Shown piece after piece: positions 2,884 to 7,886 of a stretch of DNA of 17,898 nt (position 1 is its first letter; every line of letters begins with the position of its first letter). The position numbers and the translations under genes are program-made. A model generated the notes under the pieces. That model was not told the origin of the DNA and ran no database searches. It saw nothing but the letters and a program-made list of their open reading frames with translations. The DNA comes from a virus. The stretch covers positions 1 to 17,898 of the IMG/VR virus record IMGVR_UViG_3300035498_000693. The stretch is one strand, 5' to 3'.

Positions 2884-3528
2884 ATGACAATAGAAGAAAT
2901 AAATAACTTAATAGAAGAAAAATATAATATGCTAATAAGTATATATCCAAAAGAAACTATCTTAGGGGTATTTTATACTGAAATAGTTTATAAAGAATTT
3001 GAAGAAGAAAATTTGAAACTTTATGCTATTTATTTACCATCTTTTACGGATATGTGCAAGTCAAGTTTTTTTAAGAAGAAAATTAAAGGTGTTCATTTTA
3101 TAGATATAAGATTACTTAATATAGAGAATCTTCCTTCTTATTATATAAAAGTTAATCCTATGTATGAAAACCTTTATCAAGAATATATTGCTAATGTAAA
3201 AGACGCTTCTTCTGATGAAATAAAAAATCATTTTGTTACTTTTATGTATGCTATTTTAAATCATAATAGTGTAAAAAAAGAAGAGCTTAAAAAATTTTTA
3301 GAGGGATTATCTGAAAAAGAAGAAAAGGCTTTTGACTTTATAAAAAATGAATTATCAGATGGAGCTGGAATAATATCCATTTCAAAGATGGTTGAAAAAA
3401 CGAATATTAGTAGACCTGTTTATAAAAATTTAATCTCAAAAATGGAAATTAATAAAATAGCAGAAATAACTAATATGGGTGTTAAAGGAACTAAAATAAA
3501 AATTTATAATCCCGCTTTATGGAGGTAA
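2884..3528 (+). CDS. Hypothetical protein with a C-terminal helix-turn-helix-like segment; possible transcription regulator
   Basis: 214-aa ORF with RBS AAAGGT. C-terminal 'LSEKEEKAFDFIKNELSDGAGIISISKMVEKTNISRPVYKNLISKM' resembles a sigma-70 region-4 / LuxR-type HTH. The N-terminal part is unassignable. Confidence 0.4.
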   Translation: MTIEEINNLIEEKYNMLISIYPKETILGVFYTEIVYKEFEEENLKLYAIYLPSFTDMCKSSFFKKKIKGVHFIDIRLLNIENLPSYYIKVNPMYENLYQEYIANVKDASSDEIKNHFVTFMYAILNHNSVKKEELKKFLEGLSEKEEKAFDFIKNELSDGAGIISISKMVEKTNISRPVYKNLISKMEINKIAEITNMGVKGTKIKIYNPALWR

Positions 3529-3530
3529 AT

Positions 3531-3698
3531 ATGACGAAAATATTTCCAGTATCATCAGACTGTACTCTTGATGAAATAATCAATTTAAACAAAGTGCTTG
3601 CAGAGACTCCCCCAACAATAGTTGGAAACTCTTGGAAAATAATAGATATAGAATATAAAAATGATATGACTTTATATATTTTATCAGATGAAGATTAA
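3531..3698 (+). CDS. Small hypothetical protein (55 aa), translationally coupled to the upstream gene
   Basis: ATG at 3531 with GGAGGT 5 nt upstream, overlapping the upstream stop. Hand translation MTKIFPVSSDCTLDEIINLNKVLAETPPTIVGNSWKIIDIEYKNDMTLYILSDED has protein-like composition. It is below the ORF-track size cut-off. Confidence 0.45.
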   Translation: MTKIFPVSSDCTLDEIINLNKVLAETPPTIVGNSWKIIDIEYKNDMTLYILSDED

Positions 3699-3716
3699 AA
3701 GAAAGGTGTGATAATA

Positions 3717-4424
3717 ATGGGAAGAACTTTTGCGCTATCAGATTTGCATGGTTGTTATGACTTATGGGAAAAGGTAAAAGAATATTTAAACGAAGATGAT
3801 GTGTTGTGGTATCTTGGAGATGCTATTGACAGAGGTAGTGACGGTCTTGCTATTTTACTAGAACTCTTACGAAGAAAGAACACTTTCTTTATTAAAGGTA
3901 ATCATGAAGAATTTCTTGAAAGATGTGTACCTGAATTAATTGTAGAAGGTTATAGCGATGAATACTCATTATGGGTATCTAATGGCGGAAAGGTCACTTG
4001 GGAATTATTATCTCAGGCTCCGGAGGAAACTCAGTGGGCTATTGTTAATAAAGTTAAAAATCTTCCTACTCGTTGTGATATAACTAATAAGAATGGTCAG
4101 ACTATCATTCTTACCCATGCTGGTTTTAATCCTTTTTCATTTAAACTTGATTTCTTTAATGAAGAACAGCTTAATACTTTATACCTTTGGAGTAGAAATC
4201 ATTTTGATACAAAATGGCAACTTGATAATGAAGAATATAAGAATGTTTATCTTGTTCATGGTCATACTCCTGTTCAAATTCATAATAAAAATGAAGTTGA
4301 AGTTTATGGTAATGGACATATGTTTAACATAGATATGGGAAGCATTTGGAGTAAAAAGACAGTTTTATTTAACTTAGACACTTTACAGCCTGAAAAATAC
4401 TTTACAGCAATAGAAAAGATATAA
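3717..4424 (+). CDS. PPP-family binuclear metallophosphoesterase (lambda-phosphatase / ApaH / PrpE-like)
   Basis: Signature motifs GDxHG (SDLHGC), GDxxDRG (GDAIDRGSDG) and GNHE (GNHEEF), plus downstream His motifs (THAG, HGHTP). The ATG at 3717 follows AAAGGTG; the track's GTG start at 3708 is less likely. The same phosphatase clade forms the healing domain of bacterial Pnkp. Confidence 0.8.
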   Translation: MGRTFALSDLHGCYDLWEKVKEYLNEDDVLWYLGDAIDRGSDGLAILLELLRRKNTFFIKGNHEEFLERCVPELIVEGYSDEYSLWVSNGGKVTWELLSQAPEETQWAIVNKVKNLPTRCDITNKNGQTIILTHAGFNPFSFKLDFFNEEQLNTLYLWSRNHFDTKWQLDNEEYKNVYLVHGHTPVQIHNKNEVEVYGNGHMFNIDMGSIWSKKTVLFNLDTLQPEKYFTAIEKI

Positions 4425-4444
4425 TTTAAAGTGAGGTGATTTAT

Positions 4445-4810
4445 ATGTCAAAATGCACAGAATGTGAATACAAAGATATATGCACAATGGAATCTTGCGA
4501 AGATAGTTCTTTATCAAAAAATAGAGGAAGGAAACGTGAGAGAGATTTAAAGTATAAGAATCACCTCAAAAAAATGGAAAAATATACACAAAACTGGTTT
4601 TATTCACCTATATATTATGTAGATGAGTATTATGTAGGGCGCGGGAGATGGGTAGAAAATCCTAAACCCTACTATAAAAGAATATATAGGGGAAAAAGAA
4701 GCCGTTATTATAAAAAACAATCTAATAAAAAAATTAGAAAATATAGAAATGAAATACATAAAGGAAGCTCTTATAAAAAGGTTTATGATTTTTGGTGGAA
4801 TTTATGGTAA
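4445..4810 (+). CDS. Small Cys-cluster protein with a very basic K/R/Y-rich tail (122 aa)
   Basis: ATG at 4445, 6 nt after GTGAGGTG. N-terminus CTECEYKDICTMESCED. The C-terminus is K/R/Y-rich (YYKRIYRGKRSRYYKKQSNKKIRKYRN), suggesting nucleic-acid binding. Confidence 0.5.
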   Translation: MSKCTECEYKDICTMESCEDSSLSKNRGRKRERDLKYKNHLKKMEKYTQNWFYSPIYYVDEYYVGRGRWVENPKPYYKRIYRGKRSRYYKKQSNKKIRKYRNEIHKGSSYKKVYDFWWNLW

Positions 4811-4825
4811 AGAAAAGGAATAAAA

Positions 4826-5227
4826 ATGAAGAAAAAAGATAGATATAAATTAATTACACATGCAATCAATGATTATAAAAATATATTTAATATAAATTAT
4901 GAAAGAAAAACTCTTTCAGAAAAAGATTTTCAAGAGCTACTATCTAAAAACAGACACTCTTCAATGTGTGAATGGTGTTATTGTTGTAGAGGTTTATATA
5001 ATTGCTGTTGGCAAGAATTATGGGAAGAAGGAAATTGGGATTTAACTCAAAAAGAAGTTGATAAAGTAATTTCCTCTGTCTTTTTTGACCTTAAAAAAGA
5101 TATTAAAAAAGATAAAAGAATGGCGGTTTATGCCACAGAAAAAGGAGTCTATGTAATTATTATTGCAAGAGACTTACCACCATTTGAGGCAGATTATATT
5201 ATTTATTTTACTAATAACGTTGAATAG
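4826..5227 (+). CDS. Hypothetical Cys-rich protein (133 aa)
   Basis: RBS AAAAGGAA. Dense Cys cluster CEWCYCCRGLYNCCWQELW. No recognisable family. Confidence 0.5.
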   Translation: MKKKDRYKLITHAINDYKNIFNINYERKTLSEKDFQELLSKNRHSSMCEWCYCCRGLYNCCWQELWEEGNWDLTQKEVDKVISSVFFDLKKDIKKDKRMAVYATEKGVYVIIIARDLPPFEADYIIYFTNNVE

Positions 5228-5523
5228 CGGAGGTTTCGGTTAAAGAGTATTATACCTAGAATCCCGCAGAAAGAGAGAAAAAAAATATGAGTAATGGAAG
5301 AATAACTTTATTAATGTATCTTTTCTGTTGTTTAGGAAGTTTATTTTGTGCAAAATATTCAGAAGGGAAACTTTTAAAAAGACTTTATATTATAGTAACA
5401 GTAATGTATTTTATATGTTTTATTTTAAATTTAATAGCTTTAAAAGGATAATCTCAAGGTATAACAGTATTATAACAAAAGGAAGACCTTTACATAATTA
5501 AGTTTAAGGATAAAGATAATTAA

Positions 5524-5554
5524 TTGATTTTTTATAAAAAATAATATATATAAA
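5524..5554 (+). promoter_or_regulatory. Promoter, member of the repeated TTGATTTTTTATAAAAA family
   Basis: TTGATT at 5524-5529 followed by TTTTATAAAAAATAATATATATAAAT; -10 candidates TATATA/TATAAA at 5547-5554. Same 17-mer as at 7162, 12534 and 14634. Confidence 0.5.
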
Positions 5555-5595
5555 TATATGAACATTGAAAATAAAATATTAAAGGAGAATGTCTA

Positions 5596-7119
5596 ATGGA
5601 AATTTTATCAAAAATCCCTATTGTTCCTATTGCTATTGTAATAGCAGTAATCTTGTTAGTTGTAATATTCTTTTATCTATGTTATAAGAAATGTCCACCT
5701 AATAAAGCTATGGTTATTACGGGACCAAGAGGAACTAAGACTATAATTGGTAAGGCTTGTTTTATAATTCCTTTTATTCAACGAGCAGATTATATGTCAT
5801 TAGAGAATATTCAGGTAGATTTCACATCAAGAGATGAAATCCCAACTAAAGATGCTATTAATGTATTAGTTGATGCAGTAGCAAATATGTCTATTTCTAA
5901 AGACCCAGACATATTAAAGATTGCTTCTTCAAAATTTCTAGGCTATAGTACAGAAGCTATTCAGGCTATTGTTACTCCAGTTCTTGAAGGTAATATTCGT
6001 GAAATTATTTCTCAGACTTCTTTGAAAGAATTAATTCAAGGTGATAAAAAAGTCTTTGCGGAAAGGGTTGTGGAAAATGTAGCTCCAAATCTTCGTGATA
6101 TGGGTCTTGAACTTACAACTTTTAATATCCAGAATTTTAAGGATAAGAATGGAGTTATTGATAATTTAGGTATTGAGAACACTGTTCAAATTTCAAAAGA
6201 TGCTAAGAAAGCACAGGCGGCTGCGCAGGCTGAAATCGCCATAGCTCAGGCTCAGGCAAATAAAGAAGCTAATGAAGCAGAAGTTGCATCAGAGGCAGAG
6301 ATTGCTAAGAGAAACACTGAATTAGCTATTCAGAAATCTGAATTAAAGAAACAGTCAGATATAAAGAAAGCTGAGGCGGAAGCTGCAAAGGGTATTCAGG
6401 CTGAGGAACAGAGAAAGGTACTTGAAATTTCAACAGCTAATGCAAACTTAGCAAAGCAGGAGAAAGAAATTGAATTAAAGGAAAGAGAAGTTTCTATAAA
6501 AGAGAAAGCTCTTGAAGCTGATGTAAAGAAAACTGCGGAAGCTCAGAAATATGCGGCTCAGCAGGAAGCTGATGCTAGACTTTATACTACTCAAAAGCAG
6601 TCTGAAGCAGAGTTGTTTGAAAGACAAAAGAAAGCTGAAGCTGAAAAGTTTGAAGCAGAGCAGTCCGCTGAGGCAACAAAAGCTACTTCTGAAGCACAGA
6701 AAATTGCTATGGAGAATGAGGCGGCTGGTATCCGCGCAAAGGGTGAAGCTGAAGCCGCAGCTATTCAGGCTAAAGCAATTGCTGAAGCTGAAGGTATTTC
6801 AAAGAAAGCTGAAGCTATGAAACTCTATGGGGAGTCCGCGCAGATGGATATGAAATTGGAAGCATTAAAGTTATTTTTTGAACAGCTTCCTGCTATTGCA
6901 CAGGCTACTGGAGAGGCTTATACTAATGTTGACCGAATTGTTATGCTTGGAGGAGATTCTTCTAAGTTAACCGGAGACATTATTAATAATGTAACTCAAA
7001 TTACAGAAGGTGTGTCAGAATCTCTTGGTATTGATTTAAAGGCTTTACTAAGTGGATTTTTAGGAGGTTCTCTTGTAAAAGAAAAGTCTACTGATAACAC
7101 AGAGGATGTTTTAGAATAA
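5596..7119 (+). CDS. floT: Flotillin (FloT/YuaG/YqiK-type SPFH / band-7 protein), 507 aa
   Basis: N-terminal TM helix (IPIVPIAIVIAVILLVVIFFYL), then an SPFH core (KAMVITGPRGTKTIIGKACFIIPFIQRADYMSL ... NLRDMGLELTTFNIQNFKDKNGVIDNLG). A long Glu/Ala-rich coiled coil of EA repeats follows. The C-terminal 'LPAIAQA...IVMLGGDS...SLGIDLKALLSGF' block is colinear with B. subtilis FloT (509 aa) and E. coli YqiK. Confidence 0.85.
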   Translation: MEILSKIPIVPIAIVIAVILLVVIFFYLCYKKCPPNKAMVITGPRGTKTIIGKACFIIPFIQRADYMSLENIQVDFTSRDEIPTKDAINVLVDAVANMSISKDPDILKIASSKFLGYSTEAIQAIVTPVLEGNIREIISQTSLKELIQGDKKVFAERVVENVAPNLRDMGLELTTFNIQNFKDKNGVIDNLGIENTVQISKDAKKAQAAAQAEIAIAQAQANKEANEAEVASEAEIAKRNTELAIQKSELKKQSDIKKAEAEAAKGIQAEEQRKVLEISTANANLAKQEKEIELKEREVSIKEKALEADVKKTAEAQKYAAQQEADARLYTTQKQSEAELFERQKKAEAEKFEAEQSAEATKATSEAQKIAMENEAAGIRAKGEAEAAAIQAKAIAEAEGISKKAEAMKLYGESAQMDMKLEALKLFFEQLPAIAQATGEAYTNVDRIVMLGGDSSKLTGDIINNVTQITEGVSESLGIDLKALLSGFLGGSLVKEKSTDNTEDVLE

Positions 7120-7126
7120 CGCAAAG

Positions 7127-7160
7127 AAAAGAGTGAACTATCAAGTTTACTCTTTTTTTA
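7127..7160 (+). terminator. Rho-independent terminator
   Basis: AAAAGAGTGAAC-tatcaa-GTTTACTCTTTT, a 12-bp stem with one G·U, followed by TTTTTTT, 8 nt after the flotillin stop. Confidence 0.7.
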
Positions 7161-7161
7161 T

Positions 7162-7190
7162 TTGATTTTTTATAAAAATTATATTATAAT
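7162..7190 (+). promoter_or_regulatory. Sigma-A-type promoter, TTGATT-17-TATAAT
   Basis: TTGATT at 7162-7167, 17-bp spacer, TATAAT at 7185-7190, immediately after the terminator. Confidence 0.65.
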
Positions 7191-7226
7191 ATATTTATAA
7201 TAAAAAGTTGGAAGAAGGTTATAATA

Positions 7227-7526
7227 ATGAAAAATAAAAAAACACAATTTTTAAATGCAAGTACAGCAAGAGAAATATCAGAAAAAAATTATAATAAAGC
7301 AATAGATGAATTTTTAGAAAAAACCTTATTTGATTTAGCTAAAGAGATTAAAGGAAAAGCTGAAAAAGGAAAATATAATTTAACTTTTTATTGGGATATG
7401 GATATAGTTAGATTAGATAATGATGAAGATATGACTACTTTTCTTTCAATGGTTAAAGAAACTTTAGTAGACTATGGATATAATGTTTTATATATAACTA
7501 ATTTAAGTGTTTACATTGAGTGGTAA
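7227..7526 (+). CDS. Small hypothetical protein (99 aa); paralogue of 9693..9953
   Basis: RBS GAAGAAGG. Shares 'TAREISEKN...AEKGKYNLTFY...LVDYGYNVLYI...YIEW' with the 86-aa product of 9693..9953. Confidence 0.55.
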   Translation: MKNKKTQFLNASTAREISEKNYNKAIDEFLEKTLFDLAKEIKGKAEKGKYNLTFYWDMDIVRLDNDEDMTTFLSMVKETLVDYGYNVLYITNLSVYIEW

Positions 7527-7541
7527 GGAGTTGATATTATT

Positions 7542-7874
7542 ATGAATGAAAATGATTTTGTTAAAGAATTAAATGAATTATTAGTTAAATATAAAACTTC
7601 AATGATTGAAGCTAGGCGGATATATTCAAAACATAAAAGTCGTTTAGTGCAATATCATGAATATAATGATATTGTATGGAGTTATTATCATTATCCTTTA
7701 GGAAAAAATAATATATGCGGTTGCGGAAGTAATTGTTGTCATTATGAATATGATAAATTAGAGAATAAAATTTATGGAGTTTGTGATGGCTGTGGCGCAG
7801 AAATATATGAAATAAAAAAAGAATATATAGATAAAGAATTGAAAGTTGGTAGATGGCTAAGTAAAAATGAATAG
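7542..7874 (+). CDS. Cys-rich zinc-finger-like protein (110 aa)
   Basis: RBS AAGGAG. Contains CGCGSNCCH...(18 aa)...CDGCGAEI. Confidence 0.5.
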   Translation: MNENDFVKELNELLVKYKTSMIEARRIYSKHKSRLVQYHEYNDIVWSYYHYPLGKNNICGCGSNCCHYEYDKLENKIYGVCDGCGAEIYEIKKEYIDKELKVGRWLSKNE

Positions 7875-7886
7875 GAGGTATAATAA

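Follow-up and report, generated by a model that had tools for sequence, protein, structure and literature searches.

In this study, we analysed a flotillin gene carried by a phage, located at positions 5596..7119 (+ strand) of the IMG/VR virus record IMGVR_UViG_3300035498_000693. The window, by which we mean the whole stretch of DNA analysed, is a contig of 17.9 kb (17,898 nucleotides) with a GC content of 29%. The coding sequence is of the FloT/YqiK type, begins with an ATG and specifies a protein of 507 amino acids (aa); a Shine-Dalgarno sequence, AAGGAG (5582..5587, +), can be read 8 nt upstream of the start codon. The gene is flanked by tail-fibre-like genes on one side and a holin/endolysin pair on the other; it is part of an RNA-repair region and stands upstream of a gene for a major vault protein (MVP). 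Loci used for comparison are referred to by L numbers.

Architecture and family assignment of the flotillin

Four parts follow one another along the protein. The N-terminal membrane anchor (residues 1-33; 5596..5694, +) was recognised from Kyte-Doolittle hydrophobicity and from a helix at residues 9-32 in an AlphaFold2 (AF2) model. Residues 1-35 form the single hydrophobic stretch of the protein, with Kyte-Doolittle values above 1.6 just for windows starting at residues 1-17; insertion of this anchor into the membrane is predicted. The SPFH/Band_7 domain (residues 34-212; 5695..6231, +) matched Pfam PF01145 with E 2.3e-19 and 70.6 bits, compared with a gathering score of 23.6. It is followed by a long helix rich in Ala, Glu, Lys and Gln (residues 213-400; 6232..6795, +), defined by composition and the AF2 model and presumed to form an oligomerisation wall; these four amino acids account for 66% of its residues (24% Ala, 20% Glu), and Pro does not occur. 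The conserved C-terminal flotillin block with its tail (residues 401-507; 6796..7119, +) was delimited by Pfam Flot and by an alignment of 21 homologues, in which the block shows many invariant columns. The Flot profile PF15975 covers residues 385-451 and is listed for the protein in the precomputed annotation. Searching with the Band_7 and Flot profiles, as the earlier note had suggested, therefore gave a divided result: Band_7 scored above its gathering score, whereas Flot, with 24.9 bits, stayed slightly under its cut-off of 27.

Stronger evidence for the family came from full-length comparisons. The NCBIfam FloT model NF058507, the only model returned by an NCBIfam search, aligned collinearly from end to end (residues 11-488 against positions 2-475 of 477; E 6e-68). 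A sequence search of the PDB matched solely flotillin-1/2 (9bq2, 9l3g) with E 1e-47, residues 32-339 aligning to 4-312. The AF2 model, which was built from a shallow 21-sequence alignment and used for secondary structure and family ranking only, shows the N-terminal helix (9-32), an alpha/beta SPFH part (38-177), a single long helix (196-411; pLDDT 76-89 over residues 250-360) and C-terminal helices. With this model, Foldseek listed flotillin complexes first (E 1e-10) and prohibitin and stomatin behind them (E 1e-3 or worse), and the Band 7 domain 1win superposes on the SPFH part with a root mean square deviation of 2.1 A. Judged by sequence and predicted fold, flotillins are nearer to the phage protein than stomatin, prohibitin or HflK/C are.

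All parts of the flotillin architecture are present and intact. The description in the earlier note of a full-length FloT-type flotillin with an N-terminal anchor, an SPFH core, a Glu/Ala-rich helix of about 200 aa and a C-terminal block is thus correct, in view of the end-to-end NF058507 alignment, the match to flotillin-1/2 and the ranking of folds. As for the name, the NF058507 score of 229.9 bits is far under the equivalog cut-off of 700 bits. On this score, the protein is a family member and its proper name is 'flotillin family protein' rather than FloT.

Transcription signals around the flotillin gene

A promoter-like box precedes the flotillin gene (5524..5552, +), consisting of the -35 hexamer TTGATT, a 17-nt A/T spacer and a -10 hexamer TATATA, and may serve as its promoter. 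Directly behind the gene, an intrinsic terminator is found (7124..7159, +) with a 16-bp stem and a U-run (-17.2 kcal/mol, z -5.9). The U-run leads into the putative promoter of the next unit, 7227-9953 (7162..7190, +; TTGATT-17-TATAAT, 10/12 matches), and a further promoter-like site of the form TTGATT-17-TATAAT with an extended TG stands immediately upstream of the MVP gene (9965..9993, +). These promoter calls rest on consensus matching.

The boxes belong together. The 17-mer TTGATTTTTTATAAAAA occurs in exact copies at 5524, 7162 and 12534 and as a near copy at 14634; allowing up to 3 mismatches, 16 matches were found in the window, a number reached in 0 of 200 shuffles. Together with the related TTGAYT-17-TATAAT sites at 2817 and 9965, the TTGATTTTTTATAAAAA boxes make up one promoter family. 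Members of the box family were also detected at several places in related phage loci by looser blastn; with the strict pattern, the exact box stands upstream of the flotillin gene in two relatives only (L021 and L124). At three terminator-promoter junctions (7124-7190, 12504-12562 and 14607-14662; hairpin z -5.6 to -6.3), the U-run of the hairpin runs into the -35 hexamer of a conserved TTGATTTTTTATAAAAA...TATAAT promoter. Because three promoters abut strong terminator hairpins in this way, the + strand is read, from its sequence, as a string of terminator-promoter-delimited units: P5524 is predicted to serve flotillin alone, P7162 six genes including that for Thg1, P9965 MVP, and P12534 and P14634 the rest. 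The statement that flotillin is located two units upstream of MVP agrees with P5524, P7162 and P9965.

Two observations concern the annotation of these regions. The listed TTG start of the open reading frame (ORF) 12534-13007 overlaps the -35 hexamer of P12534, and the ATG at 12594 is the more likely start. The 368-bp gap in front of the flotillin gene (5228-5595) contains a weak hairpin without U-run (5227-5267) and an ORF (5287-5451) for a hydrophobic two-helix protein of 54 aa. This ORF was considered as an NfeD-like or partner gene; having no homologue in 148 related loci, it was not treated as a gene.

Phage context and gene neighbourhood

On the minus strand, the genes at 349-2736 gave weak PHROG matches to virion proteins, while PHROG families on the + strand comprise Thg1, RNA ligase, polynucleotide kinase, phosphoesterase, holin and endolysin. 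The unit between flotillin and MVP includes a gene for a Thg1-like tRNA-His guanylyltransferase (7887..8759, +; Pfam Thg1 E 9e-32, phrog_4717 E 2e-91). An RNA ligase, a Zn-ribbon protein, a Pnk-like kinase and a metallophosphoesterase are encoded at 13406..16181 (+) and were recognised as a conserved backbone by family matches and their common order in relatives. A lysis cassette of a holin-like gene and an endolysin with Amidase_2 and PG_binding_1 domains is located at 16710..17880 (+; Pfam, PHROG).

The + strand block 2884-17880 has a gene order common to many IMG/VR contigs of 130-150 kb, with nucleotide similarities of 63-80%. The entire series from the tail-fibre homologues to the endolysin is present in L120. 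In L103, the order is metallophosphoesterase, two ORFs, flotillin, YqeY, MVP, HNH, metallophosphoesterase, GIY-YIG, RNA ligase, Pnk and metallophosphoesterase. The gene order shared with related viral contigs shows no element boundary on the way from the flotillin to the lysis genes, and the earlier note was right to treat the DNA as phage rather than host DNA. That the window might be host chromosome or a chimeric assembly could be argued from the up to 73% identity of the flotillin to chromosomal flotillins and from the GC content of its gene, which is above the window average. Both flanks, however, carry phage genes in the order known from many 130-150 kb viral contigs, the third codon positions of the flotillin gene match the phage in GC content, the box in front of it belongs to the phage promoter family, and the independent assemblies L103, L001 and L021 have the same arrangement. 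A host or chimeric origin of the sequence is contradicted by these findings and was rejected.

Neither the identity of about 70% to host chromosomal flotillins nor the nature of the region as an RNA-repair cassette had been recognised in the earlier note. The RNA-repair set (3708-4424, 7887-8759 and 13406-16181) comprises the Thg1-like 3'-5' polymerase, an RNA ligase (PHA02142 OB and RNA_ligase), the Zn-ribbon protein, the Pnk-like kinase and two metallophosphoesterases. Based on homology, it is the backbone of the region and is conserved throughout the phage lineage, with the MVP gene embedded in it, and it looks like a tRNA-repair counter-defence module. Scans of the window for tRNAs and Rfam families found nothing, and neither the flotillin nor the MVP protein matched a defence model of PADLOC-DB. 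A megablast search with 5000-12600 had no match among deposited phages; the lineage is known from metagenomes alone.

Several further genes are worth recording. Two small paralogous proteins, both assigned to phrog_5321, are encoded at the two ends of the unit that separates flotillin from MVP (7227-7526, 99 aa, first gene; 9693-9953, 86 aa, last gene). Directly after the promoter P2817, a 214-aa protein with a weak CodY-type helix-turn-helix at its C-terminus is encoded (2884-3528); its C-terminal ~54 aa are conserved at 50-67% identity upstream of flotillin or MVP in many relatives, and the protein is a possible regulator of the region. Two small Cys-rich proteins (of 124 and 133 aa), encoded at 4436-5227 immediately before the flotillin unit, matched no family, and homologues of them were not found in related loci. 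Finally, flotillin and the phage module with MVP, Thg1, RNA ligase and Pnk occur together on the contigs L021, L030, L072, L073 and L079 from GTDB metagenome-assembled genomes (Bacilli, Bacteroidales, Eubacterium, Agathobacter); these are probably contigs of phages that were wrongly binned with bacteria.

Origin, selection and exchange with bacteria

Chromosomal flotillins of Lachnospiraceae and Blautia share 63-73% identity with the window flotillin, and those of Treponema about 60-65%. Three bacterial flotillin loci were checked and have GC contents of 36-45% and ordinary cellular neighbours: Rho, Na/H antiporters, GGDEF and an ABC transporter in L101, an MFS transporter, ROK and pyruvate formate-lyase in L023, and a rhamnosidase and an ABC permease in L031.

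The close similarity to host flotillins would allow the phage protein to engage the same partners, among them FtsH or other raft-resident machinery, which it might modulate in the manner of HflK/C, thereby protecting phage membrane proteins or altering cell division. Links of HflKC to FtsH and of Bacillus FloT/FloA to FtsH are established. Overproduction of flotillins alters differentiation and shape in Bacillus (PMC3892786). The sequence has no feature specific for FtsH binding, however, NCBIfam returned the FloT model and no other, and lysogeny genes were not seen in the window; we regard such an action on FtsH as improbable.

The flotillin gene has a GC content of 0.365, which exceeds the window average and appears as a bump at 6-7 kb, and a recent transfer was therefore considered. 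It was ruled out since the GC content at third codon positions (GC3) is 0.23, inside the range of 0.10-0.27 of the neighbouring phage genes, and the excess resides mostly at first codon positions (GC1 0.52), matching the Ala/Glu-rich composition of the protein. Comparison of the window with the closest phage copy, L103 (81% identity), gave nonsynonymous and synonymous differences of pN 0.13 and pS 0.59 and a dN/dS of ~0.13. From this ratio, the gene is taken to be under purifying selection and therefore maintained rather than decaying.

For the relationships between phage and bacterial flotillins, a neighbour-joining tree with 200 bootstrap replicates was calculated; in the set compared, L046/L047 and L083/L095 were called bacterial from GC content and the absence of phage genes only. 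Different phage flotillins join different bacteria, with bootstrap support of 96% for L006/L020 and two Lachnospiraceae, 100% for L012 and Fibrobacter, 85% for L018/L073/L116/L122 and Treponema, and 78% for L001/L002/L021 and Blautia/Lachnospiraceae. The window flotillin pairs with L103 (96%), and the bacterial L028 joins this pair with just 45%. As the phage flotillins fall into several groups with different bacteria, they are polyphyletic in this tree, which indicates that exchange between phages and bacteria, in one direction or the other, took place several times. It was also observed that one flotillin subfamily is common to Lachnospiraceae (L022-L033) and Treponema/Spirochaetaceae (L034-L078) of animal guts at 60-73% identity. 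Phages may have moved flotillin genes between phyla.

Linkage of the flotillin and MVP genes

The ORF 10030..12486 (+) encodes an MVP-like protein of 818 aa, which matched MVP_shoulder (PF11978) with E 1e-19 and 71 bits. Rat and human MVP in the PDB align to residues 447-743 (E 1.5e-7), N-terminal vault repeats gave just faint precomputed matches in the MVP homologues, and the top 120 matches of a protein search are all phage-type proteins of ~60% identity. By these homologies, the protein is a member of the major vault protein family, represented by the shoulder and cap-helix region. Its shoulder also matches Band_7 (39 bits), which agrees with the view that the element encodes two proteins with an SPFH fold.

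The co-occurrence of the two genes in related phages, an obvious check of their connection, proved to be recurrent but not regular. Among MVP-anchored IMG/VR loci, flotillin is located within 10 kb in 13 of 45 (in one more at ~14 kb) and is absent nearby in 32 of 45. Conversely, of 20 viral loci anchored on flotillin, 5 carry MVP within 10 kb. In about 30 related loci anchored on RNA ligase, neither flotillin nor MVP occurs within 10 kb. The difference between 13/45 and 0/30 for flotillin is significant (Fisher p 0.001) for counts that are phylogenetically non-independent and come from pattern-biased sampling. Where both genes are present, flotillin is usually 0.4-1.1 kb upstream of MVP, an arrangement seen in four flotillin clades. 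In L116, L122, L134 and L136, a flotillin of another clade is located ~7 kb downstream of the end of the MVP gene, and in L079 it is likewise downstream. L106 and L111 have MPE1 followed by MVP without flotillin, while L104 has MPE1, flotillin and MVP. In the window itself, the two genes belong to separate transcription units with six genes between them. Pairwise distances of flotillin and MVP are correlated (r 0.64, Mantel p 0.0002), with clear discordances; between the window and L103, for instance, the difference is 21% for flotillin and 39% for MVP. Furthermore, three uncultured huge phages of 462-735 kb (LR756500.1, LR756501.1 and LR756503.1) encode MVP homologues with 42% identity over 77-78% of the protein; no flotillin match was obtained in these records at E <= 1e-5. 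Linkage is thus facultative both ways, as would be expected of two optional genes that share an accessory hot spot.

In the earlier note, it was proposed that the flotillin forms a raft platform anchoring a vault-like shell. A membrane-anchored flotillin ring would then nucleate or tether the vault-like shell of MVP, and the infected cell would contain a compartment made of two SPFH-fold parts. The enrichment of flotillin near MVP over MVP-less loci, the upstream position in four clades, the entry of flotillins of different clades into MVP phages at a second site (L116, L122, L136), the correlated distances and the Band_7 match of the MVP shoulder are in line with such cooperation. Most MVP loci, however, manage without a nearby flotillin and three quarters of the flotillin-anchored loci without a nearby MVP, as do the huge phages without a matching flotillin; separate units six genes apart, the non-independence and bias of the counts, and the fact that correlated distances are expected for any co-inherited gene pair likewise speak against it. 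Since the evidence shows linkage and not joint function, the proposal is not supported, and we consider it unlikely. Still less probable is its extended form, in which flotillin and MVP constitute one system: a closed shell of MVP would be seeded by, or docked on, a membrane-anchored ring of the SPFH protein, yielding a phage-made, membrane-tethered protein compartment that perhaps shelters the co-encoded RNA-repair enzymes or their tRNA substrates from host nucleases. If this were true, the repeated independent capture of flotillins by MVP phages would mean selection for the partnership. As flotillins of different clades have entered MVP phages more than once, a functional link may nevertheless exist.

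Flotillins in other phages

Full-length flotillins are rare in deposited phages, as had been supposed: 9 of 50,697 records match the protein, and 2 of 50,697 cover at least 80% of it. In csAssE-Sib, a 'flotillin family protein' of 566 aa is encoded among replication genes (DnaB, exonuclease, helicase), and in L015 the flotillin gene stands beside genes for RecJ, a primase Zn-ribbon protein and UvrD. The viral contig L007 (46 kb, 48% GC) has flotillin near GIY-YIG, NAMPT, RlaP (RNA-repair Pol-beta family) and a CCA-adding tRNA nucleotidyltransferase (16612-20948), and is a second case in which a phage flotillin is paired with RNA-repair or NAD-salvage genes. From these three contexts, it follows that phage flotillins sit in early-type, takeover, repair or replication regions and not in structural or lysis modules. 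Phage SPFH genes have been mentioned in passing with no function assigned (PMC3220722, PMC13239085, PMC13384950).

The neighbourhoods suggest that flotillin could act in counter-defence, stabilising or repairing the membrane against depolarising or perforating abortive-infection effectors, in parallel to RNA-repair genes that would undo tRNA cleavage. In the window, the gene is embedded among those for Thg1, RNA ligase, Pnk and two phosphoesterases, and in the unrelated L007 it is again found beside RlaP, the CCA-adding enzyme and NAMPT. Its variable presence and repeated acquisition are typical of arms-race genes, and SPFH proteins take part in membrane stress responses (PMC8581546). All of this is guilt by association, no SPFH protein has a known anti-defence role, and in other phages flotillin belongs to replication modules; PADLOC gave no match, though its library consists of defence and not counter-defence genes. 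We therefore regard a counter-defence function as doubtful.

A role in lysis timing, superinfection exclusion or the membrane anchoring of replication or assembly factories was weighed as well. The lysis cassette has the same orientation as the flotillin gene and begins 9.6 kb downstream of it, an SPFH gene adjoins a superinfection-exclusion gene in Vi01-like phages (PMC3220722), and csAssE-Sib and L015 have flotillin among replication genes. On the other hand, the window flotillin is neither adjacent to the holin gene nor in its unit, its position relative to the lysis genes varies among relatives, and evidence for the roles in replication, assembly or lysis timing proposed in the earlier note was not found. 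We think these roles quite unlikely.

Proposed role of the phage flotillin

With a probability of roughly 55%, we favour the explanation that the gene encodes a functional FloT-type flotillin related to the genes of gut Firmicutes (Lachnospiraceae-like) hosts, and that it is a self-contained accessory cassette in a variable early-type region of a gut/rumen phage lineage with genomes of ~130-150 kb. Its traits are moron-like, as its presence varies among syntenic relatives and its cellular homologues are 63-73% identical. After infection, the host-derived gene would be transcribed by host RNA polymerase from its sigma-70-like promoter, and the N-terminal helix would insert the protein into the cytoplasmic membrane. 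The long Ala/Glu helix would then drive oligomerisation to a dome- or cage-like SPFH assembly at the inner membrane face, in analogy to flotillin cage structures (PMC11260169, PMC13000311). This assembly would supplement or replace host flotillin during takeover, so that membrane fluidity, microdomains and membrane-protein complexes are kept working until programmed lysis. Flotillin could act without a need for MVP, and the frequent proximity of the two genes would reflect co-inheritance in one accessory hot spot. From transcription through insertion and oligomerisation to the supplementing of the host protein, these steps are inferred from flotillin structures and the biology of Bacillus FloT/FloA.

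Some points weigh against this explanation. Confidence in the AF2 model is low (pLDDT 63). The earlier note had given the gene its own terminator and promoter; the terminator is strong and the promoter box is present, but this copy has a poor -10 hexamer (TATATA) and hairpin folding revealed no convincing terminator upstream of the gene, so that its autonomy is only partial. Several independent flotillin lineages occur in MVP-carrying phages, hinting at a link more specific than hitch-hiking. Literature searches gave no paper on phage-flotillin function, nor expression, localisation or phenotype data. Moreover, 'supplementing host flotillin' names no selected benefit; the gain might lie in keeping the membrane stable until lysis, in withstanding abortive infection directed at the membrane, as the RNA-repair neighbours suggest, in control of FtsH or in anchoring of replication.

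What flotillins, which are conserved organisers of membranes, do in bacteria is a matter of debate. With its almost host-identical flotillin retained under purifying selection, the phage represents a natural experiment on extra flotillin in a stressed cell. The repeated exchange with gut bacteria (relatives of Lachnospiraceae, Treponema and Fibrobacter) suggests that phages may carry flotillin genes between bacteria. In addition, the placement of flotillin with MVP and RNA-repair genes offers a testable handle both on prokaryotic flotillin and on prokaryotic and viral MVP.

Comparison with known systems

The phage flotillin has the same four-part architecture as bacterial FloT/YqiK (B. subtilis FloT = YuaG; NF058507) and is collinear with it over the model. 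In the three bacterial loci that were checked, the flotillin gene stands alone, as it does in the phage, and no NfeD partner is recognisable. The window flotillin differs from bacterial FloT in being phage-encoded; its gene has the codon composition of the phage and is preceded by a promoter box of the phage type.

Human flotillin-1 and flotillin-2 (9bq2, 9l3g), which form a membrane-attached dome of 44 subunits, are the best matches in the PDB by sequence and fold; in them, as in the phage protein, the SPFH domain is followed by the long helix and then by the C-terminal block. They bind the membrane by acylation and a hairpin and not by an N-terminal helix as in the phage protein. Furthermore, human flotillins hetero-oligomerise, whereas the single phage gene presumably gives a homo-oligomer or mixed rings with the host protein. 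HflK/HflC are SPFH membrane proteins as well and are known for the FtsH control of lambda CII; they differ from the phage flotillin as host-encoded, periplasm-facing hetero-oligomers.

Among phages, the SPFH/Band 7 proteins of the Vi01-like PhiSH19, the Schitoviridae phage GIB1, Xanthomonas phage X1 and csAssE-Sib are likewise phage-borne and have no assigned role. That of csAssE-Sib resembles the window flotillin in its length (566 aa) and its position among early genes. These phage SPFH proteins have at most 31% identity to the window flotillin over the SPFH domain only, or are of short SPFH/lipoprotein types; none of their genes is linked to MVP or RNA-repair genes, and none has been shown to be nearly host-identical.

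The MVP homologues of the phages ctOa11 and ct2Ri15 are proteins of ~810-840 aa from gut Caudoviricetes thought to infect Firmicutes (bioRxiv 10.1101/2023.11.10.566534). Going by the description in the preprint, the window MVP appears to be of the same kind. The preprint makes no mention of flotillin, SPFH or RNA-repair genes near MVP (bioRxiv 10.1101/2023.11.10.566534), and the placement of a flotillin gene beside phage MVP and RNA-repair genes is not described in the literature searched. Compared with these systems, the protein is an ordinary member of the flotillin family in an unusual carrier; new are its near-host identity, the repeated exchange with bacteria and the recurrent, optional proximity to MVP and RNA-repair genes.

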